Source of the DNA: Escherichia coli
Lineage (GTDB): Bacteria; Pseudomonadota; Gammaproteobacteria; Enterobacterales; Enterobacteriaceae
NCBI GenBank assembly: GCA_032372955.1
Contig: GCA_032372955.1_4725.1
DNA: 64,000 nt
Reading direction: 5' to 3' (one strand)
Part shown: in pieces, positions 21,396 to 44,989 of the stretch
Position numbering within the stretch: the first letter of the stretch is position 1
How the letters are laid out: every line of letters starts with the position of its first letter
The notes under the pieces: generated by a model
What the model was told of the DNA's origin: nothing
The model's database searches: none
The model's input: the letters and a program-made list of their open reading frames with translations, nothing else
Position numbers and translations under genes: made by a program

Positions 21396-22376
21396 ATGCA
21401 AGAGAACCAAGTACATATTTGGGCTGTCGGTGGTTGTGGTGGCGAAATCGGCTCAGCATTTGAAGGCGAAGTCGCGAAAGGATTACACAGCATGACGTAT
21501 GTTGATACCAGCCGCGCTAACCTACGCGATAGCACACTGGGCGACGATCATATTTACATCTTTAAAGATGCAGCCGGTCGTGAGTTAGACGGTTCTGGTA
21601 AGAAGCGTGACGAGAACGCTGAACTGATCTGTTCGCAAATCCCAGGTATTCTCAATAAGCATACACCAGGTAAATTTAATATCGTGGTCTTTAGTTTGAG
21701 CGGTGGTTCAGGTTCTGTTGCCGGTCCTGCGTTGGTTGCTAACCTGCTGGAACGCGGTGAACGTGTGGTGTGTTGCATCGTTGCCTCGTTCGATGATGAG
21801 CGTCAGACGATCAACGCCGATCGCACCTTCAAAGGACTGATGGCGGCTGCAGAAGGGTTGAAGCGTCCAGTGATTGTTAGCTATCACATGAATGGCGAAA
21901 ATGGGAAATCAGAGCAGGATGTCAACCTGGATGTGCAGGTTGTTATCAGCCAGCTTTGCGTTCTGTTTTCTGGCGAGAACCGTCGTCTTGACAGCGCTGA
22001 CCTGGAAAACTTCTTAAACCATCCACGTGTTACCGGTTTGGAACCAACGATCACCGAACTGAATACGTTCATGGGATACGATTGGACGAAAGAGAACGAT
22101 AGCCCGATTGCTTTCTGTACGCTTTATCCGAAAGACGCGACAAAAGTCATGGGCGTTAGCGCTATTTACAGCTGCGATGGTTTTGTGCCTGAAAGCAGCC
22201 CAATTCGTGAAGCGACGTCGTTTGTTTTAAGTACCGATCGTTTAGGGGGTATTATCAAACAGATCGCGGACGAAGCGAAACGTTACATCGAACATCGTAA
22301 CGCGCGTCAACAGGCACCGAAAGTTGGTGACGAAACTGTAGCAGAAGCGAAGAATAGCGGTTTCTTGCTTTTCTAA
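21396..22376 (+). CDS. phuZ: PhuZ-type phage tubulin (tubulin/FtsZ-like GTPase)
   Basis: 326 aa; N-terminal WAVGGCGGEIG glycine loop and tubulin-signature-like FSLSGGSGSVAGP (compare GGGTGSG); aggag RBS. Confidence 0.8.
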   Translation: MQENQVHIWAVGGCGGEIGSAFEGEVAKGLHSMTYVDTSRANLRDSTLGDDHIYIFKDAAGRELDGSGKKRDENAELICSQIPGILNKHTPGKFNIVVFSLSGGSGSVAGPALVANLLERGERVVCCIVASFDDERQTINADRTFKGLMAAAEGLKRPVIVSYHMNGENGKSEQDVNLDVQVVISQLCVLFSGENRRLDSADLENFLNHPRVTGLEPTITELNTFMGYDWTKENDSPIAFCTLYPKDATKVMGVSAIYSCDGFVPESSPIREATSFVLSTDRLGGIIKQIADEAKRYIEHRNARQQAPKVGDETVAEAKNSGFLLF

Positions 22377-22413
22377 CACCGAACCAAAAAGTTCAAGTGA
22401 TTGGAGATGCGCT

Positions 22414-22614
22414 ATGTCGCTGTTTATCTGCGAACGTTGCGGTCATGTTGATAGTACCGAACTCGCTTACGAGAATCGACAAAGTGCTGGTCAGTTCCTG
22501 TGTACGAAATGCCAAGGCCGTCAATGGCATGGCTATTTTCCATATCAGCTGTATGACCCAGCAAAACACGCACATATCGTCAACCATCCTTCATTGAAAT
22601 TGGATGGTTATTAA
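22414..22614 (+). CDS. small zinc-ribbon protein
   Basis: 66 aa with CERCGH...CTKCQG (CxxC...CxxC). Confidence 0.45.
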   Translation: MSLFICERCGHVDSTELAYENRQSAGQFLCTKCQGRQWHGYFPYQLYDPAKHAHIVNHPSLKLDGY

Positions 22615-22623
22615 GTTCTATCG

Positions 22624-22650
22624 AGCCTGTCCTTCGGGGCAGGCTTTTAT
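22624..22650 (+). terminator. hairpin plus T-run
   Basis: gcctgtcc ttcg gggcaggc then ttttat. Confidence 0.5.
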
Positions 22651-22654
22651 GCCG
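22646..22654 (+). promoter_or_regulatory. TTTATGCCG element after hairpin (late-promoter-like)
   Basis: Exact 9-mer 14 nt upstream of the ATG of gene 22668. Confidence 0.4.
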
Positions 22655-22667
22655 CGTAGGAGAAAGC

Positions 22668-22988
22668 ATGGGAAAGTGGTGGGAGAAAATAAGAAAGCGG
22701 TTTAACGATTGGAATCAGGAACGGCAAGATCGTAAGGATATTGAAGTTATGCGTGGTTACCCAGCGTATACCAACACGTACCTTACGCTCTACTACAATC
22801 GCTCAAAGAAAGAATGGACATTTGAATGGGATGATTTGTTCGCTAACCCCAGACCTGCACATTGGCCATTCCACGACTGTGTTATGGTTGTCCCTCCAGA
22901 TACCAGAGCAACGGAGGATGAAATAAAGCGTGCTTGGGACGTCTTAGACGAAAGAGGTATCGGTGGTATTCGAAGAGGGAGAAAATGA
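22668..22988 (+). CDS. hypothetical protein
   Basis: 106 aa; aggaga RBS. Confidence 0.5.
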   Translation: MGKWWEKIRKRFNDWNQERQDRKDIEVMRGYPAYTNTYLTLYYNRSKKEWTFEWDDLFANPRPAHWPFHDCVMVVPPDTRATEDEIKRAWDVLDERGIGGIRRGRK

Positions 22989-23079
22989 CGTCAGAAACTC
23001 TCCTGCTTCGTTTTACGCCGTATATTTTAACTATTCCCAGATATCGTGTGTATAAACAATGGGGACTTAGGAAAAGAGT

Positions 23080-24057
23080 ATGACCAAGAGATTAGCCAGG
23101 ATCGATTTGTACACATTAGCATCGTGGGTTTCATTACCGCTTATCGATTGTCTGAGTTTGCATCATCAACGCCAGCTTTCTCCGAAGGAAAAAATGCAAT
23201 TAACCGAGTTGTTGGTGGATTTCGATCTTAATCAGAGAATGACCTGGACTCGACATGATCCTCGATATCGTCATGAATCGTTCGCAGATATTCTCGGCCC
23301 GATTTGGTACCAACCTGAATTTCGAGAAGACTTCGATGTTGTCCAGGGTATGGTAACCGAATATTTGTCTTATCATCACAATAAGCTGTTTGGTAAGAAC
23401 TGGTCGGATAACCGTATTTACGGAATAGAACGTGTGTGCGATTATGCCTATATTGTTGATCTTGGCCGCGTTCCTAAACGTCAAACAAAACCAACGCCGT
23501 TAAAAGCATTTGAGTTCCAAGAAACAGAGTATTGCGTCGATCGTAAATCAGCAACCGAACACGTTGTCCGCGTACGTAATAGTAATCCTCGAGTGATGGC
23601 GATGCCGTCAATTAACATTACGATCAATATCTGCCCGTCTGGCGCGATTGTTGAACGTCCCCAGGAGCTAACAGATGAACAATTTGAATGGCTTGGGCAA
23701 TTGGAAGAACTTCGATTGGCTCACGCAAAACGAAAAGCGGAACAACTCGCCAATGAACCCGTTTATATTAAACAAGGCCTTGCCCTTAAGGAGCGATTTA
23801 AACAACGCCGCTCCGTCTTCGGTCCGGTGCAACCCGTACTATATGAGTTTGGGGTTCCCGAGTACCGGATGGATGCTGAGTCGGTGGCAACCGCTTTCTT
23901 GGATAACGGTGAAATACATCGACAAGGTGCACGTTCTTCGGGTCCTTTTAGACCGGTTCGAGTCCAGCGTCCACGCAGACATCGGCATACTAAGTCGAGA
24001 ACAGGAAATGATGACGTGTCACGAGACATGGACCGATCTCATTACCGAACTTATTGA
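23080..24057 (+). CDS. hypothetical protein (3' end uncertain)
   Basis: 325-aa ORF; last ~40 residues are Arg-rich and low-complexity while the +1 frame becomes protein-like. Confidence 0.4.
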   Translation: MTKRLARIDLYTLASWVSLPLIDCLSLHHQRQLSPKEKMQLTELLVDFDLNQRMTWTRHDPRYRHESFADILGPIWYQPEFREDFDVVQGMVTEYLSYHHNKLFGKNWSDNRIYGIERVCDYAYIVDLGRVPKRQTKPTPLKAFEFQETEYCVDRKSATEHVVRVRNSNPRVMAMPSINITINICPSGAIVERPQELTDEQFEWLGQLEELRLAHAKRKAEQLANEPVYIKQGLALKERFKQRRSVFGPVQPVLYEFGVPEYRMDAESVATAFLDNGEIHRQGARSSGPFRPVRVQRPRRHRHTKSRTGNDDVSRDMDRSHYRTY

Positions 24058-24304
24058 GCGGGCTGGCGATACAGAACGTATTTTCAATGAAGACGATCCG
24101 TCGATGGAAAGGCATGTTGACGCTTACCATGCGGCCGCGTCAGAACTTACGAATCTCACCATGGCGCTGGAGCCTGTCTTCGGTAGTGAGTTTATTCACG
24201 TATGGGAACACATGTTGGAAGGGCCTTACAATTGGGCGTTGGAGAGTTACAATGCGGCCACCTTTGTTGCGATCTTTAGAGCAATTTCAGAGAGACGATT
24301 CTAA
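24008..24304 (+). CDS. hypothetical protein
   Basis: Protein-like frame from MMTCHETW with aggaa RBS; the track ORF 23675 upstream is less convincing. Confidence 0.4.
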   Translation: MMTCHETWTDLITELIERAGDTERIFNEDDPSMERHVDAYHAAASELTNLTMALEPVFGSEFIHVWEHMLEGPYNWALESYNAATFVAIFRAISERRF

Positions 24305-24413
24305 GCCGTCGGTTATTCCGCGCCCAAGTCAGGTTTCGATACATATTCGCACACCACAGACAGGGCGTCGGTACATCATCCCATTATTAAACTACAGTGA
24401 ATATCTGTTTTCG

Positions 24414-24737
24414 ATGCTCGATGAGCGATTACCTTATTTCTCACCGAACGGAAATTATGATATTCACACGTTGCTTTACGACACGATTGAACTGTATCTG
24501 TACAAACGGAATATCTCTGGCCGTGATGTCGACATGCAACTTGAGTTCGTTCTGGATGAAGTTTTCATGCATGAAGACTACGGCCATGATGAGAAGTTCG
24601 ATTTTCGTTGTCGTTTATCGGTGATGCGAAGCGAAGTTAACCAAATCCTTCGTACGTGGATTCCACGTGTAGAAGATTGGTGGCATTTCAATTTTACGTT
24701 AGATACGAGTATGACGTTATGGTTGGTGGTGGAATAA
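24414..24737 (+). CDS. hypothetical protein
   Basis: Protein-like part of track ORF 24054..24737 starting at MLDERLPYF; start uncertain. Confidence 0.35.
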   Translation: MLDERLPYFSPNGNYDIHTLLYDTIELYLYKRNISGRDVDMQLEFVLDEVFMHEDYGHDEKFDFRCRLSVMRSEVNQILRTWIPRVEDWWHFNFTLDTSMTLWLVVE

Positions 24738-25231
24738 TGCAATCAAAGCCGTCGGCATTTGTGCGTTATCGGCAGAAACCTAATTTTCTTAATGGGAAAG
24801 ATGACGGCGTGCGGATATCGGTGTGCTTGGAAACCGTACTGGCGATGTTGTACCAGCATATGGACAAGTATACTTTCTTCGACCGCATTAACGTATCGGC
24901 TTATGACGTGCTTCAGTATACGACGTATGAGTACTGGTCGTTACGTATGCAGCGACCATTTCAATCGTGGTATCCGCCGGTATATGAAATGATAAGCGAA
25001 GAACTGTGTCAGGAACTGGTTAGCGTAGATCATGACGGTGAGTATTATGAAGCCATTTATAGTTATGTTGACGCGATCCAGGAAACCGTTAATCTGATCT
25101 TCCCGTGCTTTGACTACTCGATGACGCAGATGTTAACGGCCAGTGGGTTATTACCGAAGACCGGCGAGAACAACCTCGAGCTAGAAGGAATTCATGGATA
25201 TGTTGCCTTTTTCAACATTGAATGTGGTTGA
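24737..25231 (+). CDS. hypothetical protein
   Basis: Start at MQSKPSAF; TAATG overlap with upstream stop. Confidence 0.4.
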   Translation: MQSKPSAFVRYRQKPNFLNGKDDGVRISVCLETVLAMLYQHMDKYTFFDRINVSAYDVLQYTTYEYWSLRMQRPFQSWYPPVYEMISEELCQELVSVDHDGEYYEAIYSYVDAIQETVNLIFPCFDYSMTQMLTASGLLPKTGENNLELEGIHGYVAFFNIECG

Positions 25232-25682
25232 TCGTGGAACAGATACCTATCGTCTGACGGTTACTATCCCTGATTGGTTACAAGCAGAGCTGAGCACCAT
25301 GAATGACCCAGAAGATCCGTTGCGCATAACAACGTTGTTGGTACTGGCGTTACGGTATCTTAATCGTCCCGTCTTGTCACGCGAGGCATTCGAGAATGCG
25401 TATATCCTCGGATACGTTAAACGTGAAGACATGGTGTTGTTTACGAAGATGCAGCTCTGTTTCTTAAATCAGCTATGTCTGTTCAATGTCGGACGTACAA
25501 CTAACGCACATCGTTACGGATGGGAGGTTGTACAAATCTATCCTACCGTTATGGTAGTATCTAGTTTTCGTCGTGCGTTGTGGGACGATCCAGAAAAGAC
25601 TGTGGCGTCGTTAATACATACGCCGAACAAGAGAAACACAGGATGGAAAAATACGCCACTGAGCGCCGTCGCCACGTTATAA
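25194..25682 (+). CDS. hypothetical protein
   Basis: 162-aa ORF overlapping neighbours. Confidence 0.4.
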   Translation: MDMLPFSTLNVVDRGTDTYRLTVTIPDWLQAELSTMNDPEDPLRITTLLVLALRYLNRPVLSREAFENAYILGYVKREDMVLFTKMQLCFLNQLCLFNVGRTTNAHRYGWEVVQIYPTVMVVSSFRRALWDDPEKTVASLIHTPNKRNTGWKNTPLSAVATL

Positions 25683-26041
25683 AACGCGATGACTACTATC
25701 TTGAGCAACTGCTCGAACAGGCGGTTAACGACATCTATAGTCAGGCAGAAGACGATTACTGTTTGTCTGGGTGGGGTACCGAAGGAAGGCAGATGCTGAT
25801 GAGGAATCTACTGCAAGAAATTGCGGATGTTGTCTTATCGGATATCGACGATGACTTTATCGATGAATACTGCGAGGAGAGATCGTTATCACGAAACCTT
25901 ATCGTGCGTATTATCGGACGTGTTTATTATCGTGTTGTCCAGGATATGGAATTCACAAAAACGTTTTATCGTGGCGGAACACTATCATCTATCCGGGTCT
26001 GGTCAGCGACGACTTTCGGATACGAATACATTTTTAAATAA
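25643..26041 (+). CDS. hypothetical protein
   Basis: Acidic protein from MEKYATERRR; start uncertain. Confidence 0.4.
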   Translation: MEKYATERRRHVIKRDDYYLEQLLEQAVNDIYSQAEDDYCLSGWGTEGRQMLMRNLLQEIADVVLSDIDDDFIDEYCEERSLSRNLIVRIIGRVYYRVVQDMEFTKTFYRGGTLSSIRVWSATTFGYEYIFK

Positions 26042-26052
26042 AGGATGCTATT

Positions 26053-26466
26053 ATGCCAGCTTCTGATTTAGAAAAGATTGGCTCTGTTGTGAGTTTTGAT
26101 GTGTACGCCCCAGAACTTGGGGTTAACTTCAACGGAGTAGAAATTAGCGCCGTGTACAATTATCGTACGGCTGTGCGCAACGGCCGTGATGTAGACGCCA
26201 TTCACCAACAGATTTATTCCCGGCTCCCGTCTAGTGTACCGAACGATCCGACGAGATACAATTACGTCGAGGTCATTACAGCCGATGGCGAGTATGTGAT
26301 TCTAGGGATTCCTTGGATTAAGGAGAGTACAATCGTTGTTACCAAGACACTGATCTATAAACCCAGCATCGTTATTGAGGATGCGACCGACGTGACGAAA
26401 ATTAATCAGATTCTTAATCAGGCAGGTTACACTAAGATTGTTGCTAACGACTTGATTAATCAGTAA
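26053..26466 (+). CDS. hypothetical protein
   Basis: 137 aa; aagga RBS. Confidence 0.5.
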   Translation: MPASDLEKIGSVVSFDVYAPELGVNFNGVEISAVYNYRTAVRNGRDVDAIHQQIYSRLPSSVPNDPTRYNYVEVITADGEYVILGIPWIKESTIVVTKTLIYKPSIVIEDATDVTKINQILNQAGYTKIVANDLINQ

Positions 26467-26662
26467 ACTTTTACATACAGTACTATATATTTTGAGTGGT
26501 TAGTGCCATCAGTGAAATAAGATAGATTCGTGTTTTTTATTCCTTCTTTGGCGAATCGCCTCTCGTGTTACAACCTCCCTCTGATCTAGCATCATTGTGC
26601 ACGAGAGAAGATCTTGTTTCACGAACATCATCGATATCTTTCTGTCAGTTATTATCCTTTTT

Positions 26663-26698
26663 AACCGATCTGGCTTCGGCTGGATCGGTTCTTTTTTA
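26663..26698 (+). terminator. hairpin plus T-run
   Basis: aaccgatc...gatcggtt stem then cttttttat. Confidence 0.5.
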
Positions 26699-26703
26699 TG
26701 CCG
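26695..26703 (+). promoter_or_regulatory. TTTATGCCG element after hairpin (late-promoter-like)
   Basis: Exact 9-mer about 60 nt upstream of gene 26766. Confidence 0.4.
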
Positions 26704-26765
26704 TCCTTCTTTTTTAACAGATATACGAGATGATGTAGACAGACTAAATAACTTTTGGAGGATTT

Positions 26766-28919
26766 ATGGAAAATCCGTTCTTTTACGATGAAAACGGATA
26801 TGGTCGTACGTTGGATATGACCAAAGAAGCGGTACAGGATTATACCCTGTTCTTAATGCGCACGCGTGGGATATCTCAGCAGGAAGCGTTGCAGTTTGTT
26901 CTTGAAACGGTTCGTCCTGGTGGAAAATACGGGATGGTTGATCCCGACTGCCTGGTATTAACACAGCGTACCGAAGGAAATCGAGAAAAAGAAGTCATCA
27001 AGTTCAGCCAATACTTCAACGATATTAAAGAAAATAATTTAATTATCACGCCGGTATGGGCTAACTGTTATCCGCGTGAAACACGTTCCAGTGTGTTAAG
27101 CGACTTCGCGGTTGAAAACGGTAAGTTGCGTAAGAAACAAAAGAAACAAATGTCGATAGCACAAGCACACGGACGTAAAGACGAAGCGGAGCTACACGAT
27201 AAACGACAAACCAACACCAAGTTAGACAACAACAGTTTGTCAGGAACCCAGGCGTCCAAGTTCAACCCTTTTTATAATCCGATTGCGCATCCAAGTTTAA
27301 CGACAACATGTCGCTGTGCTTCAGGTTCAGCCAATGCGAACAACGAACGCTTCCTTGCGGGCAATTTCCATTATTACGATTGTGATATCGCAATTGAAAA
27401 CATCGTGAGTATTGTCCGTAACAGCGATCGTAAGGCCATTGAGCAGGTAATGGTAAAATACAAACTGCATTACCCTACGCCGGAAGAGGTTTGGGCTAAC
27501 GTATCGAAATGCTTGCATCGATATACTTTCGACCCAGAGAAAGAGCTGACCATCCGGGAGCTAATTACCGGTTTAACGCCATTAGAACGCGCCTGCTACA
27601 TGTACAGCAATAACCTGTACTCGTTACGTGAGCTTAATCCTGAATTCGTTCGAGATTTTCTTGATTCGTTATGTGAGCTGGCATCCGAACCTGTTGAAAC
27701 GATGGAAGAGGCTAAAGCCATTATTGCTTCCATGGATAACAACACGGTCGCTTGGATCACAGCACAATGTACGGAGTTCTTGAATGGGGAGGCGATTTAC
27801 GTAGCGCTAGAAAAAGGAAATGAACTTGGTTATCGTCTTACCGCAGCAACGACAAAATTAATGCTGCAGCGTATCCAAAGCTACGCTGATTTGATTATGG
27901 CGTTCTGGCGTACCGAGAACCAACCGGCTGGAGTTTATGCTTTCCCGTCGGCAATCCGTGAAGTGGGTGTGTTGTCTGATACCGACTCGACGGTGTTTAC
28001 CTGCCAGGAGTGGGTTCAGTGGCGATTTGGAAATATGGAGATCAATCCAATTTCGACGCGCTTAGCAAACACGCTTATCTATCTGGTTACGCAGATTACG
28101 GTTCATCTGATGGCGATGTGTTCTGGTAATATCGGTGTAGCGAAAGAGCATATGTACGTGATGGAAATGAAGAACGAATATATGTTCTTGATTCTGTCGT
28201 TAACCTCGATGGGTAAAAACTATTACGGTTACATGACCATGCGTGAAGGGGTTCCTATCAATCCACCGAAGCTGGAATTGAAAGGTCCGGTTATGCGTGA
28301 TGCGTCAGCACCAAAAATGATCGTCAAACGTGTTGAACGCATGATGTGCGGTATCATGGATAAGCTGTTACGTAATGAGAAGATCAGCATTCGATTGGTT
28401 CTTGACGATATTATCTCGTTAGAAAACGAAATCGTTGAGTCCATGAAACGCGGTGATCCCGATTTCTTAACACGTGTTAAAGTGAAGCCACATGTTGCGG
28501 TAACGAAACAGTCTTACGATATGTGGGAAGAGGTGTTTGCTCAATCGTACGGCCATTGCCAGGAACCACCCTATATTGGGGTTCGTGTGCCGTTGGCGAC
28601 GAAGAACAAAACGCTTCTTAACGATTGGATTGATTCCTGGGAGGATAAAGGGTTACAACAACGTTTCCGTGATTGGATTGTACGTAACGATAAGAAAACG
28701 ATAAGCAACTTAACGATACCATTACCGGTGATCGAAGCCTCCGGGCTTCCCGATATCTTTATTCAAGGGATGGATATTCGTCGATTGATTTCTACGCTCG
28801 TGCGTTCGTATTACGCGTTAATGGAAAGTTACGGTATTTTCATCTCGAATAAAAACAATACATTGTTAGCCCAAGACATTGCAGCAAGTTATTTACCGAA
28901 GCGAGAAACCACAGAGTAA
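26766..28919 (+). CDS. hypothetical large protein
   Basis: 717 aa; ggagga RBS. Confidence 0.6.
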   Translation: MENPFFYDENGYGRTLDMTKEAVQDYTLFLMRTRGISQQEALQFVLETVRPGGKYGMVDPDCLVLTQRTEGNREKEVIKFSQYFNDIKENNLIITPVWANCYPRETRSSVLSDFAVENGKLRKKQKKQMSIAQAHGRKDEAELHDKRQTNTKLDNNSLSGTQASKFNPFYNPIAHPSLTTTCRCASGSANANNERFLAGNFHYYDCDIAIENIVSIVRNSDRKAIEQVMVKYKLHYPTPEEVWANVSKCLHRYTFDPEKELTIRELITGLTPLERACYMYSNNLYSLRELNPEFVRDFLDSLCELASEPVETMEEAKAIIASMDNNTVAWITAQCTEFLNGEAIYVALEKGNELGYRLTAATTKLMLQRIQSYADLIMAFWRTENQPAGVYAFPSAIREVGVLSDTDSTVFTCQEWVQWRFGNMEINPISTRLANTLIYLVTQITVHLMAMCSGNIGVAKEHMYVMEMKNEYMFLILSLTSMGKNYYGYMTMREGVPINPPKLELKGPVMRDASAPKMIVKRVERMMCGIMDKLLRNEKISIRLVLDDIISLENEIVESMKRGDPDFLTRVKVKPHVAVTKQSYDMWEEVFAQSYGHCQEPPYIGVRVPLATKNKTLLNDWIDSWEDKGLQQRFRDWIVRNDKKTISNLTIPLPVIEASGLPDIFIQGMDIRRLISTLVRSYYALMESYGIFISNKNNTLLAQDIAASYLPKRETTE

Positions 28920-28930
28920 CATAATCCACC

Positions 28931-28980
28931 ACCCCATCCTCCCTTCCCTTACGGGTTGGGAGGATGCAAGGGAAGAGGGA
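28931..28980. terminator. GC-rich structured element between convergent genes
   Basis: catcctccc/gggaggatg and cccttccc/gggaag pairings. Confidence 0.45.
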
Positions 28981-28985
28981 GGTGA

Positions 28986-30080
28986 TTATGCACCAGCAGG
29001 AAGAATTTTTAAGAGGTCGGCAACCTGTGCAATAACTTCACGTCTTAAATCGCCAGGTAACGGAGAGGATTCCCAGTTACCTTCTTTTAGACTCCGGTCG
29101 GCAGCACGGTACAGGTCATTATCGATTTGACTGCTGAACCCGACGCTTTCAGATACGTTTTGCAATGTGACGAGTTGTTGCCATAATGACAGACAACCCA
29201 GATCCCTTGCCCATCTCGTTTGTCGAAGATCGACGGTGTAGCCCATTCGGGTTGCTTGGTACTGATCCCCGTATAAACTCGGTATCTGTTTAAGCATGTC
29301 GGTGTAGCTTCGTCTTCTGCGTAATAAATGATGCTGTACAGACAGAACGACTTGACTGAATACGTTATCCAGGTCGTTAACGTAAATTGGTGATTTGAGT
29401 GGATTCTTAGCCGGAGATACCCATAAACAACGATTGCGTATAACAACATCGTTGTGTGAGTATAATGCGTTAACCAACGGAAAACTCGCAAGAAAGCTTG
29501 TAACCGGTTCTTTAACCACCCATTTACCGTCGTCGTTATGACCCATGACCAAAGACCACATTCGATACTGTAGCGCTAATAAAGGTACATCAACCATAAT
29601 GACCGCAAAACCTCGTCCTTCTTCAACCTGCTTTTGGTGAAGAGGAATGTAACGAAGATTTGCGTATGGGTGCGTCACGATTCTAACTGGTGACCAATTA
29701 CGCCAGTTGTCAAGAATGTCACGTGAAATAAGACGACTTTCACCGGTTGCGATAATAGCTTCGTGCAATCCTGGATAGAAAGCACCGTCGAATAACTTAC
29801 CCGCGTATCTTGATGTTGTCAACTTGACACGATTACCCAATTCTGGGGTAAGATCGAGAATCATGTCGTAGTAAGTTTGTACTGAGATGTCGTATCTCAT
29901 AGGGAGCTGTGCAAGCAGCAACGCAAGGATGTGATCGCTCTGAACCGCGAAGGTAAAACCCTGATAGTGGTTCTGGATTGTCTGTAGGTTTCTTTGAACT
30001 TCGCGTATTAGATAGTCTTTCTGAGGGACGGGTTGCACACCCGATGATGTTCGCGGGAGGTTATTTAAAACACGAAACAT
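28986..30080 (-). CDS. hypothetical protein
   Basis: 364 aa; acggag RBS. Confidence 0.55.
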   Translation of the reverse strand: MFRVLNNLPRTSSGVQPVPQKDYLIREVQRNLQTIQNHYQGFTFAVQSDHILALLLAQLPMRYDISVQTYYDMILDLTPELGNRVKLTTSRYAGKLFDGAFYPGLHEAIIATGESRLISRDILDNWRNWSPVRIVTHPYANLRYIPLHQKQVEEGRGFAVIMVDVPLLALQYRMWSLVMGHNDDGKWVVKEPVTSFLASFPLVNALYSHNDVVIRNRCLWVSPAKNPLKSPIYVNDLDNVFSQVVLSVQHHLLRRRRSYTDMLKQIPSLYGDQYQATRMGYTVDLRQTRWARDLGCLSLWQQLVTLQNVSESVGFSSQIDNDLYRAADRSLKEGNWESSPLPGDLRREVIAQVADLLKILPAGA

Positions 30081-30250
30081 ACGAACTCCGTAAGAAGATG
30101 GTAAACGGATATGACATTACTCTCAATAAGAGAAGTAAAAGTTTACAGACATATCCTGATTATATGTAGAAAGAATGTTGCTTCTCGGCAGCGTTCGCCT
30201 AGGGGTTTATATCGTTCAATGTGGTTACACCAATATTGAAAAAAATTTCA

Positions 30251-30270
30251 GGGTTATATTACCTAGGTGA
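30251..30270 (+). promoter_or_regulatory. TATATTAC element (early-promoter-like)
   Basis: gggtTATATTACctaggtg about 75 nt upstream of the chimallin candidate. Confidence 0.45.
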
Positions 30271-30334
30271 ATGAGCGAGTAGAAGCTGATTCAATGACGT
30301 CATTTAATAAAGTTTAAGAAAAGAGGAATCCCAA

Positions 30335-32230
30335 ATGGGCTTAGACGTACGTAATAACGGTAACGATAATGTAGAAATTCGTGCAGCTGAAACCCGCACC
30401 GCACAACGTGCTGATGAGGCGCTGGAAACCGCTGCAGATTTTGCCGACCGTCCTAAAGTAACTCATACGATGCGTACGATCAACCGTACACTGAGCCGTC
30501 GTATCAGCCGTAATACCGGCTCCGAGCAGGTACTGAATCTCCGTCGTCTGATGGAGAAATATCTGGAAGATACCCAGTTCAAAGACGACTTCATCTTTGT
30601 TGCGGTTGACCCGAACCAGTACAGCGTACCGTATCCGACCCTGGTTGTTATGAGCGGTGCAAAAGTTGGTGACCATAACCACTTCTTCGGTTACGTCCTG
30701 CCGCTGGTTGCTGGTTTGGCTCCGCTGCCGCGTCGTGAAGAACAAGGTCCGCATGGTAACATTCTGGTACCGCGTACCTGGGTTGATAACCTGAACGGTA
30801 CGTTCATCAACGAAGTCATGGCGGCAATGTATTCAGCTATTGGCGGTAAGTCTAACGGTACTGTTCGTATCGCTGGTCTGGCTGTGGTGACCAATGAAAT
30901 CACCGCTGAATCTGCGCATCTGGCAACCACCCTGCTGTCTGCTGCAGATAACGCAATCCAAACCGCGATCGAAATCCGTCTCGGTGATAAACTGGGTCTG
31001 CCGCAGTTCAACCTGGGCATGATGGCAAGCGATCAGCCAATCAGCAGCGTTCAGTACAACACCAGCGGTATGCAGGACAGCGATATTGTTGGTAACCCTG
31101 TGCGTTCTGACATCACTGTAACTATCTCTAACCGCATCCGTCAAGCGATGAGCGATTACGATAGTCAACAGCGTCTGGTCGCCACCACCGGTTACATTGA
31201 CCTGACCTACAGCCCGCAGAACCCGACCTTCAACCAAGGCCCTGTTCTGGTTAACGGTTATCCGGTACCGCCGACTGTACAATACCAGCCGCGTTACGTG
31301 ATGACCAGCGCTTACCCGCTGGAGCTGGATGCGTTCACACCGAACAGCTTCGTGCTGGGTCTGATTGGTACCATCGCTACGCTGAACAGCGGCATGGCAT
31401 GGGCACAGTCTTTAATCAGCAACGCGGCTCGTGGTATTGGTCCGCATAACCCAGGTGCTCTGGCGATGGTACTGGATCCGGAAGTTACCGCACCGCTGGA
31501 TCTGTCTACTCAAACCAACGAGCAGATTTACAAGTTCCTGCAACAGGTACTGTATCCGTCTCTGCTGATTTCTATCGACGTACCGGAAGAAGGCGAATAC
31601 AGCTGGCTGCTGCGTATGATCCCGGCGGCTGAGAAGATCTATACGGGTAATGTTGAAGGTAAAGTTCAGGAAGTCTCTGAAGGCTACAAAGCACTTTACC
31701 GTGCCTTCGATGATACTACCCTGGGTTGCTTCAGCAAGAAATATCAATACGGTCAACCGCTGGTCTACGCTACCGGTAACCGTATCCCGCTGGGTTACTA
31801 CAACCACCAGGATGGTCACCGTCACGATATTCGTGATATGGACGATCTGTACATGATGAACATCACTAACCCTGATACCGTAGAAGCTTGGGAAGACAGC
31901 TTCGACCGTACCGATATGACGATGTCTCAGCGTGTTGTCGCTCGTCACGAAATCATCGATCGTGTTCTGTCTGGTAGCTGGGAACAAACCGGCTGGGCAA
32001 TGCGTTACGACTTCGATCCGTTAGCACTGCAGGCGCTGATCGAAGCTGCGGCTGATGCTGGCTTCACCATCCGTCCTGAGAACATCCAGCATCTGGCAGG
32101 TACCGCTGTTCGTGGTAACATGGCAGCACGTGCTCGTGGTCTGGGTAACATCTCCGGTAACATCTACGCACGTAGCGATCGCCCGAATGTTGGCGGTAAC
32201 AACATGGGTGGGGCATTCAACCTGTTCTAA
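30335..32230 (+). CDS. chmA: putative chimallin (phage nucleus shell protein, ChmA-like)
   Basis: 631 aa (about 70 kDa); very strong codon bias; TATATTAC element upstream; sits immediately upstream of the RNAP beta-prime N-terminal gene and about 9 kb from phuZ, matching the recalled phiKZ gp54-gp55 order. No sequence comparison was possible. Confidence 0.55.
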   Translation: MGLDVRNNGNDNVEIRAAETRTAQRADEALETAADFADRPKVTHTMRTINRTLSRRISRNTGSEQVLNLRRLMEKYLEDTQFKDDFIFVAVDPNQYSVPYPTLVVMSGAKVGDHNHFFGYVLPLVAGLAPLPRREEQGPHGNILVPRTWVDNLNGTFINEVMAAMYSAIGGKSNGTVRIAGLAVVTNEITAESAHLATTLLSAADNAIQTAIEIRLGDKLGLPQFNLGMMASDQPISSVQYNTSGMQDSDIVGNPVRSDITVTISNRIRQAMSDYDSQQRLVATTGYIDLTYSPQNPTFNQGPVLVNGYPVPPTVQYQPRYVMTSAYPLELDAFTPNSFVLGLIGTIATLNSGMAWAQSLISNAARGIGPHNPGALAMVLDPEVTAPLDLSTQTNEQIYKFLQQVLYPSLLISIDVPEEGEYSWLLRMIPAAEKIYTGNVEGKVQEVSEGYKALYRAFDDTTLGCFSKKYQYGQPLVYATGNRIPLGYYNHQDGHRHDIRDMDDLYMMNITNPDTVEAWEDSFDRTDMTMSQRVVARHEIIDRVLSGSWEQTGWAMRYDFDPLALQALIEAAADAGFTIRPENIQHLAGTAVRGNMAARARGLGNISGNIYARSDRPNVGGNNMGGAFNLF

Positions 32231-32256
32231 TGGAAGAACGTTCGATGTAATCTGAC

Positions 32257-32305
32257 GGGAGGGAGGGCAACCTCCCTCCCTTATACGTCCTAACGTTCTT
32301 TTTCA
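32257..32305 (+). terminator. hairpin plus T-run
   Basis: gggagggagg gcaa cctccctccc 10-bp stem then ttcttttt. Confidence 0.55.
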
Positions 32306-32322
32306 TTTGTAGGAGATACCCC

Positions 32323-33672
32323 ATGGCCATCATGCTCGATATCGTGAGTTTCGATAGACAGCTCGCAGAACTTCCTTTTACGCCGATTTTGTTGAATGAT
32401 TACGATACAAAAGTCGTCGAAGAGAAGAAGAAATTAAACAGTTTTATTACCCGTGTTTACTCCAGCGATACGTTGGATATCACGCCACAATGTGGTTGTG
32501 GTTTCTACAATCGTGGTGAGCTACTCGGCACGGTGTGTCCAAACTGTAAAACGGTTGTAACCTACCCAGCAGAACAAGAGATTCGTTCGACGGTTTGGGC
32601 GCGTGTTCCTGAAGGAATCGATGCGTTCATTAACCCGTTGGTCCATCTCGTGCTGGCAAGCGAGTTGAATATCAAAAGCTTTGAAACGATGACGTGGCTA
32701 ATTGATGCCAGTTACCGTCCAAATGTAAAACGACCCATCGAACTCAAGAACTATCTGGAGCAGCAATTCGATGTATTCGGGATACGGCGCGGTGTAAATA
32801 GCTTTATACAGAACTTCGATCGCATCATGGAGATCTTGTATAAAGGACCTACGTTACGTGGACCGAAGAACACGGAGAAAGTTGACACACTACGAGAATT
32901 CATCCGTATCCATCGTGATAAGTTCTTCAGTCAGTATATCAGCTTTCCTGCGGCCATGATGTTCGTTATCGAGAATACGCCAACCGGTCGTTATGCGGAT
33001 AGCAAAATGGAAGGTGCGATCGATGCTATCGGTACGTTGAACAGTATCTATCATCCAACAACACCTTTGAGCGCCAGAAAGAAAGAAAACTGGATGGCGA
33101 AAGTGCAATTGAAGCTGCTGCAATACCATGCGGCGATTTTCGATGAGTTCATCGGTAAGAAGAAAGGTATTACACGTAAAAACATATTAGGTACATTACA
33201 TCCATTCACCACGCGTACCGTAATCAGTTCGATAACAGCGAACCATCGTTATTATCATCTGCATTTCCCATACGCGCCATTTACTTTAACCAATAAAGAA
33301 CATATCCAATCCAAGTTATTCCATCGTGGTTATTCGCCAAGAGCAGCACGTGCGTTCGTTGCGGAACATGTTCGCAATTATCATCCGATGATGAGCGAGC
33401 TGCATGATGAGCTTATTGCTGATACACCGTTCGATGGGATTGTGTGTGGTTTTGTTCGAAACCCATCACTTGACCGAAGCAGTAACCAATGTCTTGAAAT
33501 CACCAAGGTTAAACGCGATCCGCAGGATAACACCATCGGGTTAAGCGTGATGATCTTGAAAGGGTCGTTAGGCCCAGTAACGCAGAAATGTTGTTACGAG
33601 GAACTCCCTAATGCGGGAACCTACTTAGAGCCTTGTCCACCAACCACGTCTGGGAACAGAGTGTGGGGCTGA
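32323..33672 (+). CDS. multisubunit RNA polymerase beta-prime-like subunit, N-terminal fragment (exon 1; ORF as drawn reads into an intron)
   Basis: Zn-finger CGCGFYNRGELLGTVCPNCK aligns to E. coli beta-prime C70-C88; RTVISS (cf RSVITV) and RNPSLDR (cf RAPTLHR) follow; the ORF stops before any NADFDGD and group I intron cores start at about 33685. True exon 1 end is probably near 33565. Confidence 0.7.
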   Translation: MAIMLDIVSFDRQLAELPFTPILLNDYDTKVVEEKKKLNSFITRVYSSDTLDITPQCGCGFYNRGELLGTVCPNCKTVVTYPAEQEIRSTVWARVPEGIDAFINPLVHLVLASELNIKSFETMTWLIDASYRPNVKRPIELKNYLEQQFDVFGIRRGVNSFIQNFDRIMEILYKGPTLRGPKNTEKVDTLREFIRIHRDKFFSQYISFPAAMMFVIENTPTGRYADSKMEGAIDAIGTLNSIYHPTTPLSARKKENWMAKVQLKLLQYHAAIFDEFIGKKKGITRKNILGTLHPFTTRTVISSITANHRYYHLHFPYAPFTLTNKEHIQSKLFHRGYSPRAARAFVAEHVRNYHPMMSELHDELIADTPFDGIVCGFVRNPSLDRSSNQCLEITKVKRDPQDNTIGLSVMILKGSLGPVTQKCCYEELPNAGTYLEPCPPTTSGNRVWG

Positions 33673-34856
33673 ACTAATCATTCAGGTACGGTAAAAGCGG
33701 CAAGGATTGGGGAATCCGCAGCGAAGTCTCCAGAACGGAGATGTGCTCAACGACTATCGCTTACGGGCGTTAGGGCCAAGCGGTGTGGGAAACCACCGGT
33801 CATTTGACCGCCGAAATGGGAGCCCCGACCAGATAATGCTGAGGGTGAAAGATATAGTCTCTTCTTACGTGAAAGACGTAAGCAGTACCTTAGGTACGGG
33901 TATGGAGTAGCGAACCATACTGAAGATTTAGATAATGCAGATTTCAGTTTTTTCAATTAAATCAATAACTTACGATGATTTATTGATACCGTCGGGATCT
34001 GGTTTCTGGTAACAGGAACATAGTTAAAACTCTCTAATTGACGGGAAGTTTCTGTAATCGGACTACACACCAACTCATCGTGGTGACACAGATGAGGGCC
34101 AGCGTAATGAACTGGGTACGGTAAAAGAGGTAGGACGGGAATAATCCGCAGCGAAGCATCTCAACAAGAACGTTCACCTGATTATAGGAATCCACGAATG
34201 TTCGTTAAGATGTGTGCTCACAGACTATCGAAAGACGCGATGTCGAGTAGAGTAGGCTCTGTTAAACACAGACCCAAACGGGAGACTCCTCGCAACGAGG
34301 ATGAAGATATAGTCGATAAACAGCGACGGGGATGCTTAATCATAGGCCCTGCCTTCCGAAAGGAAGAGCTTGGATTCCGTGAATTGCTGGGAAGGGCTAA
34401 GGCCGCTACGCCTCGTAAGAGGAACCGATAAGGTAGAAACAAGGTAGCGGATGTACGCGGCTTCAATGACAATCCCTTCGGGGATGCCTACCGTACATGA
34501 CAATGTTCGATCAGCAGCGAAGCTCCGTTTAGGAGAACGTTCAACGAATACGTGGTCTCAAGCGAGATCCAGCGCGGAAGTCCTACGTTCCATTTGGAAT
34601 ATGGATAAGATGTATTCTGGACATTCCGGTAACACCGGAAGCTGCAGGTAAAGCTGCGGGTATGAGGTAGCGACTCATGCTGAACACTACGATGAACAAC
34701 CATATCGTCCCAGACATTTGGACTGCGAAACATTTCGGGCGTTTTCGACCCGAACTCGGTATGATGGATAATAACGTACCTTTTAAGGTATCTAAGAAAT
34801 GTGAACATCAGTCACCGGTTATTTCTACCATTGACTGTTGGTTCAACGAATTCGTG
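33566..34856 (+). other. non-coding region with two or more tandem ORF-less group I intron cores
   Basis: Core 1: P-like 33685-33705, Q-like aatccgcagcgaag 33713-33726, R-like gctcaacgactatcg 33745-33759, S-like aagatatagtc 33849-33859. Core 2: P-like 34115-34134, Q-like 34144-34157, R-like gctcacagactatcg 34216-34230, S-like aagatatagtc 34304-34314. R/S closely match Tetrahymena GUUCACAGACUA / AAGAUAUAGUC and pair GACTA with TAGTC. Third partial Q-like copy at 34510-34522. Boundaries approximate. Confidence 0.7.
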
Positions 34857-34931
34857 GAGGGCGATGACGTAGAACCTTATCTTGACGAAATAGAAGCAAC
34901 TAACAACCATTGCTAAAGGAGGACGCCTGTA

Positions 34932-41610: not shown

Positions 41611-41745
41611 CAATGCTTTAGCATCGCATTCTGAGTCTTCGATTCAGAAGGTAACGCGAATATTTTCCGTTAGTGCAAGGTGTCTCGCTTCGGCGGGATG
41701 CCTTGCATGCTGAGCGATAACTCAGCCGGAATCCAAAATTATTCA

Positions 41746-41765
41746 CGCTTATATTACCTTTGTGG
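41746..41765 (+). promoter_or_regulatory. TATATTAC element (early-promoter-like)
   Basis: cgctTATATTACctttgtgg about 60 nt upstream of the start at 41815. Confidence 0.45.
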
Positions 41766-41814
41766 TAGACGTCATAGAATACGTTTTAACAGGGAACCGC
41801 GAAAAGAGGTTGTT

Positions 41815-43401
41815 ATGCACATAGTGCCCGTCATTACGACGCAAGGAAAAGAAAAGCTGGATCACTATCTCATCAAACACCGTGATGGACGTACTGTGGA
41901 ATTTTCAGGTCAGGGTTACATCAAGATTGATGGGGATATGGCTAGCAATCAGATGCGGGAGATTAACAAGTATCTCGCCTGGATAGAACAAAAGAACCCA
42001 CGTCGAATTGACGACATCTTTGAAGGGTTCGTTAAAGCACGTGAAGCGATGGATAACTACATTGCTCCACAACAACAAATGGAGGAGTTGAGCCGCGCTG
42101 TTGGTGAAATTTACAAACCGGTTGTGTATGAAGAGATTCTGGCATTGTGTAATACCCCAGGTTGGGTAAAATTACCGCCGGACATGAAAACAACATTAGG
42201 TGAGGATGATATACCCGAGAAAACCTATTTACGAAATGATTACGTTGAGTTAACGGCGTTAGCGATCTACGTCCGTCTGATGGTGCCGATTTGGGCAGAG
42301 TTTCTGATTGACGCAGGGAAAACGTACGGGACGGTCCGTAAAGAAGAAGTGGCTATGTCGCTGATGTATAAAACACGCATTCATGATATCGCCGCTTACG
42401 ACCGACTGGAAGACTATATCCGCGCACAAACGGGTGATAAAAAGATCACGCTGTCGATGACCGTGGATTACATGTCGACGGAGAAAGTACCCGGTTGGTT
42501 GCGTTCACAAGCCATCGTTCGTCGTCTCGCTGTACGCGATTTGGACCAAGCTGTACAGCCTGTCGTTAAAGATGGGGTGTTGGTGAGTTGTACGCATCTG
42601 GTAACGTTAATCTTTAGCTATGTGAATAACCTTTGTACGGAACGACGTTTCAGTGGACCGATTCGTGAGAAAACCCCACGAGGAAACGCGCAAGATGAAG
42701 ACAGTCAAGGCGTGATCGATGCGTTGATGGTGAAAGATAAACGTTCACCGCGTGTACTCATTCTTGACATCGCCTATCTTACCCAGATGGAACGTGTGTT
42801 GCACGACGTCGACGAAACGGCACCTTACGGTAAAGTTGAAGACATGTATGCGCGTATCGCAAAACGTTACGATGGATACACGTACGCTAAACACGATGAC
42901 ACCGTTGAGTTAAAACCAATCAACCGCGGATGCCGAGCACTGGCACAATGGTTGCTTGATAGCCATCTTCCGGCGAGAAGTCTGGCACCGATTGAAGCCG
43001 TGCATCAGGCAAAAGCGTTAGCCATCGCAGCGTGCTTGTTAGACCATTGGGGTTTTCCTCAACTGGCCGCGCTGACCGTAGGTATCCAGGTTAAACGCGA
43101 CGATGTTTATCAGATTATCCACCAATTAAAACCACAGGAGATCATTACTGTCAATAAATTGTATCCACACGCCATGTATGAAGATGAACGTACAACTTTA
43201 CCGGTTGTCGGTATTAACATGGTGGCCGATGCGTTTTGTGAATGGGACTGGGATGTTTCAGCAGCAGGCCCGGAAATCCTTGAGAAAGTCCCAGCTGACC
43301 GTAAAGGATTGATGCTTTGTCCAGCAGATATCCGTCAGCAGCTTGTGCAATTAGTTGTTCGATTAAATGAACACGTAGTAAATTTAAGAGGAAAAAAATA
43401 A
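41815..43401 (+). CDS. hypothetical protein
   Basis: 528 aa from MHIVPVITTQ with agagg RBS; the track's N-terminal extension from 41680 overlaps the promoter-like element. Confidence 0.55.
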   Translation: MHIVPVITTQGKEKLDHYLIKHRDGRTVEFSGQGYIKIDGDMASNQMREINKYLAWIEQKNPRRIDDIFEGFVKAREAMDNYIAPQQQMEELSRAVGEIYKPVVYEEILALCNTPGWVKLPPDMKTTLGEDDIPEKTYLRNDYVELTALAIYVRLMVPIWAEFLIDAGKTYGTVRKEEVAMSLMYKTRIHDIAAYDRLEDYIRAQTGDKKITLSMTVDYMSTEKVPGWLRSQAIVRRLAVRDLDQAVQPVVKDGVLVSCTHLVTLIFSYVNNLCTERRFSGPIREKTPRGNAQDEDSQGVIDALMVKDKRSPRVLILDIAYLTQMERVLHDVDETAPYGKVEDMYARIAKRYDGYTYAKHDDTVELKPINRGCRALAQWLLDSHLPARSLAPIEAVHQAKALAIAACLLDHWGFPQLAALTVGIQVKRDDVYQIIHQLKPQEIITVNKLYPHAMYEDERTTLPVVGINMVADAFCEWDWDVSAAGPEILEKVPADRKGLMLCPADIRQQLVQLVVRLNEHVVNLRGKK

Positions 43402-43402
43402 A

Positions 43403-44989
43403 ATGATCCCGATGAATGTTCGTGAAATCCTGATGGTTGAAACCGCACCGTACAACAACGTACAACGTCGTCCACTACGATTCCACGCAGATAGCATGCG
43501 TAGCATCGAAGACTTTATTAACACGACGCGGTTCGGTACGGCAACAACACCATCAGCAATCAATAAGCTTGCAACCGGGTTGTTGCAGCAGTCTGCAGAA
43601 CCTGAGGGGGTTTCGGAGATTGCGAATGGTTGGGGCACACGCCGTTTCCATTTCATGATGGCTGTAGAAGAATCCTTGGCTCTCGCACCAGGAACCAAGC
43701 GTGTCCATTACATTTCTGGATACACCGACCATTCTGTAAGCCTTGATGCGTTTACAACGCGTGCTATCGATCTGCCGAATGAACTGGTGTTCTTCTTCAC
43801 GAATGTAATCCAGGTAACCGAAACAACCACAACGGATATGTTCGGTAAGCAAATCGTTCGTGCAACCCCGATGGATGCAACGAACCTGTTGACTGGTGCA
43901 TACGACCCCGTTAATCGCGATGTTCAGTTCAGTACTCGTGTTCAGGATACGCTGACTTATGCATCGACCGCACGTTGGGTAGGCAATGGTGGTTTTGATA
44001 ACCAGTTCATGGACCCAGCGATGCAGAACGTGATGCAGCAGTTCGATCCCGCCTACGCTGACGTGGTTCATCGTACATCCTACCCACCGCAGCCGGAACC
44101 GGTTTTCCGTGGTGTGGAGGCAGCAATGTGTTTCGCAACGGAGAAAATCAAACCAGCTAGTGCCGATACGAACATCCCAACCATCTATCTAAGAAAAGCC
44201 TTCGATAATGTTGGGGCTATTCGTCAAACGTACGAAAGCGGGTCTCATCCAGGTAGCGCAGAGAACGAGGATATTTACGTAGAAGCCGCTCAAGCTGTTC
44301 GTGAAGAACCGTTGGTTGCGCATCCAGTATTCGGTGCGATTATGCGTGATGAAGGATTCGCTTTCAGCGGTAGCCTGAGTTGGGCTGACATGAAACGGAT
44401 GTTCGGTGAACATATCCGTGACGTCTTAACGTTATTCCCGTATGTGGAAGCCCGTCGCGGTACATCAGCAACCACCGAGTTTGGTTGGATGCCGACCGAC
44501 AGCCAGAGCTGGGATGTGATCGATTATCCAACGCTGTATTGTTCATCGCTTGCTGCAATGATGCCTGCTGCCATGACGTATCGCATGTTGGAATCGTTCC
44601 GTTTCATTGCTGACAACCACGGTCACCCAGAACTCGGTATCATGCCAGGTCAATGGGCGGTTGCGGTTACCGACGCCGTACCGTTCATTAAAGGATACGA
44701 TTGTAACCGTGCTGCTGAACAAATGCGTTCTGACATGATTACCAATATCCTACCCTCCATGTTGGGCAACAACCCGAATGCGGTTATGGTGAGCGGCGCG
44801 ATTAACCTGTTCCTGGACAGCCAGTTCAAGATCAGCGTTGACGGTTCTGCACCGATTCCGTACACCATGCCGAACATCAACCCATCCGCATACAGCCCGC
44901 TGCTCAACCGTAGCCAGCAGGAGGTGTATAAGCTGAGCGTTGATTTGTTTAACCTGGTGGATGCGGTAACTACCAAAGGCAACTTCTAA
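43403..44989 (+). CDS. hypothetical protein
   Basis: 528 aa; agagga RBS. Confidence 0.55.
   Translation: MIPMNVREILMVETAPYNNVQRRPLRFHADSMRSIEDFINTTRFGTATTPSAINKLATGLLQQSAEPEGVSEIANGWGTRRFHFMMAVEESLALAPGTKRVHYISGYTDHSVSLDAFTTRAIDLPNELVFFFTNVIQVTETTTTDMFGKQIVRATPMDATNLLTGAYDPVNRDVQFSTRVQDTLTYASTARWVGNGGFDNQFMDPAMQNVMQQFDPAYADVVHRTSYPPQPEPVFRGVEAAMCFATEKIKPASADTNIPTIYLRKAFDNVGAIRQTYESGSHPGSAENEDIYVEAAQAVREEPLVAHPVFGAIMRDEGFAFSGSLSWADMKRMFGEHIRDVLTLFPYVEARRGTSATTEFGWMPTDSQSWDVIDYPTLYCSSLAAMMPAAMTYRMLESFRFIADNHGHPELGIMPGQWAVAVTDAVPFIKGYDCNRAAEQMRSDMITNILPSMLGNNPNAVMVSGAINLFLDSQFKISVDGSAPIPYTMPNINPSAYSPLLNRSQQEVYKLSVDLFNLVDAVTTKGNF

Follow-up and report, generated by a model that had tools for sequence, protein, structure and literature searches.

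The segment from position 21396 to 34916 of the DNA analysed here, a 64,000-nucleotide (nt) stretch of Escherichia coli assembly GCA_032372955.1 that is referred to as the window, is with a probability of roughly 90% the conserved core block of a chimallivirus (a jumbo phage that forms a nucleus) belonging to the Goslar species, in which the beta-prime N gene of the non-virion RNA polymerase (nvRNAP) is split by introns. This reading is carried by protein identities, by synteny, by intron boundaries that are visible as presence/absence alleles and by an RNA structure that is visible in its covariation. A megablast search of 21396-34916 against a phage collection matched one species only, with Escherichia phage vB_EcoM_Goslar (NC_048170/MK327938) as the best match (97% query coverage, 97.8% identity). 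In piecewise BLAST all 64 kb of the window run collinearly along Goslar 203238-138549, taken as its reverse complement, and are 96-98% identical to it. As Goslar is a phage of E. coli, the host of the phage in the window can be taken as enterobacterial, and the proposal of a nucleus-forming jumbo phage of an enterobacterial host, made earlier from the letters and a list of open reading frames (ORFs) and called the sequence-only reading in the following, is thereby upheld. Only two large differences separate the window from Goslar and both lie within 21396-34916: the window has 368 additional bases at 33564-33931, and it lacks 1065 bases which in Goslar contain an HNH endonuclease gene.

The beta-prime N gene starts at 32323, 92 nt downstream of a 631-amino-acid (aa) gene identified below as chmA, and the 449-aa ORF 32323-33672 matches phiKZ gp55 in the solved nvRNAP structure (7ogp_A) with an E-value of 1e-59. 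The direct adjacency of the two genes had been pointed out before and holds. The beta-prime N gene had, however, been taken as this single ORF, which has to be revised, as the gene runs on through three introns to 34916. The alignment to gp55 ends at aa 414, and this end coincides with the break in the collinearity with Goslar at 33563/33564. Exon 1 (32323..33565, on the plus strand like all parts of the gene), placed by the gp55 match and the Goslar collinearity, ends with ...AAA GGG U, and the 449-aa ORF reads on for 107 nt into intron A (33566..33931), a group I intron of 366 nt without any ORF that is absent from Goslar (RF00028, 30.4 bits). It is followed by exon 2 (33932..33944), a 13-nt micro-exon, AUAAUGCAGAUUU, that provides the end of the Y codon, N, A, D and the start of the F codon. 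Intron B (33945..34323) is a group I intron of 379 nt that has neither an ORF nor a P9 helix (RF00028, 44 bits), and exon 3 (34324..34336) is again a 13-nt micro-exon, CGACGGGGAUGCU, with the end of the F codon, D, G, D and A. Both micro-exons were placed by frame, motif and gp55 alignment. Intron C (34337..34691) is a group I intron of 355 nt without ORF, with a weak RF00028 match (17.6 bits), assigned by covariation with intron D, which occupies a further site in related genomes. Exon 4 (34692..34916) starts with AUG AAC AAC CAU (MNNHIVPDIW...) and is closed by the stop codon; it makes up the in-frame portion of a 79-aa ORF (34677-34916) and was placed by its alignment to residues 443-495 of phiKZ gp55/gp56.1. 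Each of the three introns is preceded by a U and has G as its terminal base. A 3′ splice site of intron C after G34679 or G34682 was also considered and rejected, as it would add three to four residues compared to phiKZ and bacterial beta-prime and would give a poorer P10 pairing.

Joining of the four exons yields a coding sequence (CDS) of 1494 nt for a product of 497 aa that contains LKGYNADFDGDAMNNHIVPD and in which the catalytic loop YNADFDGDAM is restored. The NADFDGD motif is only found in the joined exons and not in the 449-aa ORF. The 497-aa product aligns without a gap to residues 41-495 of phiKZ gp55 and matches 7ogp_A over its own residues 21-476 with an E-value of 1e-74. The joining lifts the gp55 score from 205 to 255 bits, and beta-prime/RPB1 chains from bacteria, archaea and eukaryotes are newly matched. 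With the same joins the Goslar sequence gives a product that differs from that of the window at one of 497 residues. Introns A, B and C are thus predicted to self-splice as group I introns, and would have to do so to restore the Mg-binding loop; their removal and the order in which it would occur are read from the sequence, and GYNADFDGDAMNNHIVPDIWTAK is the junction-spanning tryptic peptide predicted for the spliced product. The gene encodes the N-terminal half of the beta-prime subunit of the nvRNAP, the polymerase by which middle and late genes are transcribed inside the phage nucleus. The public annotation of Goslar (L001 13927-17215) treats the gene differently: its beta-prime N CDS takes in the first 16 nt of intron B, neither the 13-nt exon 3 nor intron C (355 nt, and present in the sequence) is annotated, and exon 4 is called a hypothetical protein with a start codon inside intron C.

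At gathering thresholds an Rfam scan gave no match anywhere in the window, whereas a permissive scan with E-value thresholds gave three RF00028 matches, all of them in one stretch of 1.1 kb, and the rest of the window gave none. In a search of 1.5 kb the E-values were 1.5e-9 for intron B, 1.7e-5 for intron A and 0.12 for intron C. The match of intron B ends on the terminal G of the intron. Its internal guide (33989-34001, CCGUCG-GGAUCUG) comprises 13 contiguous nucleotides, of which six pair with the start of exon 3 (P10) and the adjoining seven with the end of exon 2 (P1), the cleavage site lying at a U.G pair, and this geometry is the same in all eight copies. The exons of Goslar read GCC GAC UU where the window has GCA GAU UU, which is synonymous, and the guides read GAGUCGG and GGAUCUG, respectively, which amounts to two double compensatory changes. 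In Goslar, intron B is 1440 nt long and carries an I-HmuI-like HNH gene in a loop that is closed by a perfect 14-bp P9 stem (UUACGUGCACCGAC...GUCGGUGCACGUAA). The window has three bases (34320-34322) in place of this stem and the HNH gene (L001 15556-16620). The same replacement, by one to three bases, was seen in the window and five other contigs and resembles a hairpin-bounded cassette that is gained or lost as a unit.

For intron A, RNAalifold gave a conserved core and a P1 of GGGUC/GGCCC in which a U.G pair marks the 5′ splice site. The fold is conserved with four covarying pairs, and little covariation is to be seen in this intron as its copies are 96% alike. The P1 that Rfam proposes for intron A (GAUGAUCUU/AGGGUCGUU) was rejected, as it would put the splice site within sequence that is collinear exon in Goslar. 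In a BLAST comparison with phages intron A gave just distant similarity to intron cores, located in DNA polymerase genes of unrelated phages. As intron C is weak in Rfam, it was aligned with its 72%-identical paralogue D. The common structure comprises P2, P3, P4-P6, the P7 pseudoknot, P8, P9, P9.1 and P9.2; 99.4% of the cells of the alignment pair versus 34-44% in slid controls, and changes on both sides were found in 35 of 89 pairs versus one to three in the slid controls, with three of the six P7 pairs covarying. Intron C further exhibits a 4-bp P10 and a P1 with U.G. A simple scan for P1 and P10 recovered the guide of intron B and partly that of intron C, and gave spurious sites for introns A and D.

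The boundaries of the introns are fixed by genomes which lack one or the other of them, as in alleles without an intron the same codons follow one another without a break. A search of IMG/VR and metagenomes with exon 1 yielded eleven further Goslar-like loci, so that 13 genomes, including the window and Goslar, could be compared. Four insertion sites, GGGU^AU (A), GCU^GAC (D), GAUUU^C (B) and GCU^AUG (C), share 31 nt at the NADFDGD codons, and at all four of them precise presence/absence alleles were found. L013, for example, which is without introns B and C, reads ...GATTTCGACGGGGACGCGATGAAC uninterrupted. Five combinations of occupied sites occur among these genomes, which are 96-98% identical: A with the short B and C (window, L006, L007, L008, L012 and L014), B with HNH gene plus C (Goslar), D plus C (L005), D only (L009, L010 and L011), and A alone, its P1 loop containing a 323-aa ORF (L013). 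An allele without any intron was not found among the 13 genomes. The exon stretch around the sites contains seven synonymous differences between the window and Goslar in 39 nt, compared to about 2.3% elsewhere, and this excess fits with co-conversion or with selection for P1 pairing.

The long intron A of L013 (860-2240), a locus that has no intron B or C, includes its 323-aa ORF as an I-HmuI-like HNH/NUMOD type, and the last codons of this ORF overlap the internal guide (GCCC) and P2. The HNH/NUMOD ORFs of intron A in L013 and of intron B in Goslar are both I-HmuI-like and 27% identical. No endonuclease ORF was found inside introns A, B and C of the window. Relatives carry I-HmuI-like HNH homing endonuclease genes in introns A and B, both of which the window appears to have lost. 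Since occupied homing sites are generally immune, the intron-occupied sites of the window are presumably immune to the HNH enzymes of these relatives, homing and immunity both being deduced from the sequences. Window intron A and intron D of L005 have an identical 3′ stretch of 31 nt, which suggests mosaicism by recombination.

Several points weigh against the intron-split gene. The splicing is predicted from the DNA sequence, and all three RF00028 scores lie under the curated cut-off of 50 bits. The P10 that was proposed for intron A does not pair the first nucleotide of the exon and was not recovered by the simple scan, the window's intron B is without any P9, and the P1 of intron C consists of just 3 bp (GCU/GGC). 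Judged by a U.G in P1, a terminal G and a guide to both exons, the splice sites of intron C are the least well supported. In L005, intron C (5619/5620) follows GCC and not GCU, so that a C paired to G replaces the U.G wobble.

Two other explanations of the same stretch were considered. The first holds that beta-prime N is the 449-aa ORF only or a decaying pseudogene, that 33566-34691 is debris of mobile elements and that 34677-34916 is a separate small gene. The public Goslar annotation follows this single-ORF view, and both the Rfam scores under the gathering cut-off and the lack of any remaining homing endonuclease gene in the window would agree with it. Yet the 449-aa ORF is without the catalytic NADFDGD, and it takes the proposed joins, and no others, to restore the motif together with the next 75 residues of gp55 homology exactly and in frame. 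In addition, introns B, C and D show double substitutions that preserve the structure, the arrangement of three introns is retained in six assemblies, and the protein encoded by the exons is near-invariant, so that this explanation is very improbable. Still less credible is the idea that the window owes the 366-nt intron A and the absence of the HNH gene to a faulty assembly or a chimera. Both differences do sit where intron-like 3′ ends repeat, as illustrated by the 31 nt shared between intron A and intron D of L005, but A, short B and C also occur together in the five other independent contigs listed above, and the six assemblies with this arrangement diverge by up to 9% in intron A.

Interruption of this gene is not restricted to Goslar-like phages. 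The gp55 homologue of phiKZ is also split by an HNH-carrying intron inside the NADFDGD codons (L015 21187-22576), but phiKZ has a single intron and this uses a fifth site, N^A (AAU^GCU), which lies 3 nt upstream of site D and is unused in the Goslar-like genomes. The 3′ end of the phiKZ intron, GCUGCACGUAAUGGUGCGGGUAUCAAUUAACGACUGAUACUGAACAAUACG, shows a clear relationship to the corresponding domains of introns A, C and D, the four introns having a common 3′ domain; C and D moreover agree in their 3-nt P1 target (GCU) and in the position of the guide. By tblastn, about 290 records of phages were found to contain gp55 homologues. Of 59 alignments sampled from these at even spacing, 17 break off at residues 417-433, where the catalytic motif lies, and these belong to phages of Pseudomonas, Salmonella, Aeromonas, Vibrio, Klebsiella and Serratia, which hints, without proving it, that many lineages may be interrupted at the catalytic motif. 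Goslar itself has introns B and C at the sites of the window; it differs in lacking the 366-nt intron A, 13 nt upstream of B, and in having the 1065-nt P9 stem and HNH gene within B.

Landthaler and Shub reportedly described in 1999 three group I introns in orf142 of phage Twort. In Bastillevirinae, the genes for DNA polymerase and terminase can contain two or three introns (PMC11878797). The introns of the window, in comparison, lie 13 nt apart in one catalytic motif and their occupancy varies among near-identical genomes. An HNH-bearing intron in an RNA polymerase gene of a chimallivirus is already known from phiKZ gp55/gp56 (PMC11512511), and PhiPA3 gp210 is an intron endonuclease in the gene of the virion RNA polymerase beta subunit (Birkholz et al., 2024, PMC11620839). 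The latter case is similar in that a group I intron with HNH gene lies beside the catalytic aspartates of a chimallivirus RNA polymerase gene. It differs in concerning the virion polymerase, another subunit and a single intron, whereas the window's introns are without an endonuclease gene. The inteins of haloarchaeal MCM helicases (PMC10643990) are likewise several self-splicing mobile elements that compete for neighbouring sites in one conserved active-site region with variable occupancy, but these are spliced at the protein level and reside in archaeal chromosomes, while those of the window are RNA introns in a phage. In the literature, to which access was partial, nothing was found on three introns spaced 13 nt apart in one catalytic motif, on such a combinatorial filling of sites in near-identical phages or on a Goslar gene model with these corrections, and no priority is claimed; the original Goslar paper does not mention introns.

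The genes around the intron-split gene belong to a module that is already known and has been experimentally characterised in the same species (PMC9891218; review PMC12908238). The sequence-only reading had recognised a PhuZ tubulin, a chimallin candidate and an nvRNAP beta-prime gene in phiKZ-like order, and had named gp54 of phiKZ as the neighbour of gp55. All three are present, their ORFs lie where it had placed them, and the order agrees with the phiKZ record, which runs gp39 (PhuZ), gp49, gp50 (DNA polymerase), gp52 (minus strand), gp54 (nuclear shell protein), gp55, gp56 (HNH) and gp56.1 and in which gp54 indeed adjoins gp55. The gene order and strand pattern of the window equal the phiKZ series gp39...gp49-gp50-gp52-gp54-gp55, but the protein identities between the two phages are only about 20-40%.

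The phage tubulin gene phuZ (21396..22376, plus strand, 326 aa) lies about 9 kb upstream of chmA, as had been noticed (8.9 kb from start to start). A search of its product against solved chains gave the tubulin/FtsZ-type PDB entry 9pm9 with an E-value of 4e-220, phiKZ PhuZ (3zbp) with 8e-29 and 3r4v with 6e-15, so that its earlier designation as PhuZ-type is well founded. The Pfam family PF00091 is matched with 29.9 bits, slightly under its cut-off of 33, and a GTPase domain of the tubulin/FtsZ type is recognised through the solved PhuZ structures. Alignment to these shows that the glycine-rich signature for nucleotide binding, SLSGGSGS at residues 100-107, and the T7-loop D199-S-A-D202 with its catalytic aspartate are kept. 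Compared to Goslar PhuZ, one residue is different (D229E). Fluorescent fusions of the kind put forward in the sequence-only reading have already been published, as GFP fusions of the same-species orthologues Goslar gp189 (ChmA) and gp201 (PhuZ), and gp201 was shown to form GTP-dependent dynamic filaments that rotate the nucleus; the PhuZ D202A mutant, changed in the D202 that is kept here, stops this rotation (PMC9891218). By analogy to gp201, PhuZ of the window would be a GTP-hydrolysing filament tubulin, and its filaments would form a vortex rotating the phage nucleus.

The 631-aa gene chmA (30335..32230, plus strand) encodes a chimallin. Residues 1-631 align with Goslar chimallin (PDB 7sqt) at 1404 bits, further chimallins including those of phiPA3 and 201phi2-1 are matched (8fne, 7sqq, 8igg), and Pfam PF25677 (Chimallin_Phikzvirus) covers residues 19-596 with 94.9 bits against a cut-off of 27. 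What had been a candidate is thus identified, and the notion of a capsid protein or another structural component of the virion instead of a nuclear shell protein, for which nothing speaks except a codon bias equally compatible with a major capsid protein, is refuted to near certainty by these matches. Goslar gp189 encloses the phage DNA as a shell in infected cells (PMC9891218). ChmA of the window, which differs from it at 14 of 631 residues, would by analogy self-assemble into a single-layer protein shell around the phage DNA. ChmA is the fastest-evolving protein of the block, its 14 differences to Goslar comparing with zero to six in its neighbours. At residues 436-447, seven of twelve positions vary among eight Goslar-like genomes, a count in which the comparison with L012 is disturbed by a 1-residue indel, and residues 76-94 were flagged as well; residues 436-447 may be a surface patch under diversifying selection.

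The strong codon bias of chmA that had been remarked on is the most extreme among the 35 ORFs of at least 200 aa in the window, with an effective number of codons (Nc) of 34.1 (next 41.2) and a frequency of optimal codons (Fop) of 0.80, the latter depending on an assumed list of optimal codons. A promoter-like motif, TTTCAGGGT-TATATTAC-CTAGGTGA (30246..30270, plus strand), is located 65 nt upstream of the gene. Given both the extreme codon bias and this motif, chmA is probably very strongly expressed. In its extended form (A-rich run, TTTCAsGGy, TATATTAC, yTnnGTGr) the motif occurs five times in the window, always on the plus strand, at 1295, 30255, 36469, 41750 and 59749, while 2.2 occurrences of the TATATTAC 8-mer on both strands are expected by chance. 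Four copies lie 48-93 nt upstream of a placed start codon, among them those of chmA and of the gp68-like nvRNAP subunit gene, while the gene downstream of the copy at 1295 was not located. The motif is a candidate promoter, as judged from its sequence and placement, and its core TATATTAC is presumably similar to the early promoter core of phiKZ. The transcriptome paper on 201phi2-1 gives no promoter sequence with which it could be compared.

Between phuZ and chmA about eleven small uncharacterised genes had been counted. A number of eleven agrees with the Goslar annotation; three of the eleven, however, are a DNA polymerase of 717 aa, its SH3-fold partner and a 364-aa homologue of phiKZ gp52. 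The remaining eight small ORFs (22414..26041, plus strand) correspond to Goslar HOV27_gp235-gp242, from which they differ by zero to two aa, and profile searches gave no informative family for any of them, the sole PHROG match being phrog_5903 of unknown function (22668-22988). The 66-aa ORF directly after phuZ (22414-22614) exhibits weak matches to Pfam zinc ribbons of the TFIIB and Elf1 types, with E-values of about 0.002 and under the cut-offs. The SH3-fold protein (26053..26466, plus strand), of a family tied to phage DNA polymerases (PF20287, 124 bits), is the homologue of phiKZ gp49 (BLASTP, 9e-19). It is followed by the divergent family B DNA polymerase (26766..28919, plus strand; PF20286, 679 bits), which takes the same relative place as phiKZ gp50, annotated as DNA polymerase. 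The gp52 homologue (28986..30080) is encoded on the minus strand and was identified by BLASTP (1e-15) and phrog_3938 (3e-53); gp52 is annotated as a structural head protein.

Downstream of the block, homologues of further nvRNAP subunits (chains B, C and D of the phiKZ structure 7ogp for gp68, gp71 and gp74) follow in phiKZ order, gp68 within 41698-43401, gp71 at 46777-48945 and gp74 at 51018-53024. The window thus contains at least four of the five nvRNAP subunits, beta-prime N being counted with these three. For the 528-aa ORF at 43403-44989 a search for solved relatives found none.

The nucleus module adds nothing new, as the window represents a further strain of a model chimallivirus with solved PhuZ and ChmA structures and published cell biology. 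New are the structure of the beta-prime N gene and its variation in the population; the intron array is well supported and of moderate interest. The public annotation of beta-prime N in Goslar is incomplete, and the 497-aa sequence is needed for expressing or modelling the polymerase. As a tentative idea, the 31 nt encoding YNADFDGDAM might be a contested landing strip on which a single family of introns spread from one site to its neighbours through reverse splicing or ectopic homing, with stacked ORF-less introns and 13-nt micro-exons being tolerated, since the phage nucleus would uncouple transcription from translation, and perhaps even favoured as immunity to the HNH nickases of relatives. 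The Goslar-like phages form a natural allelic series in E. coli, in which the number of introns ranges from one to three and HNH genes are present or absent, and which could be used to follow homing, marker exclusion and intron competition in the phage nucleus and would thereby extend the work on PhiPA3 gp210.

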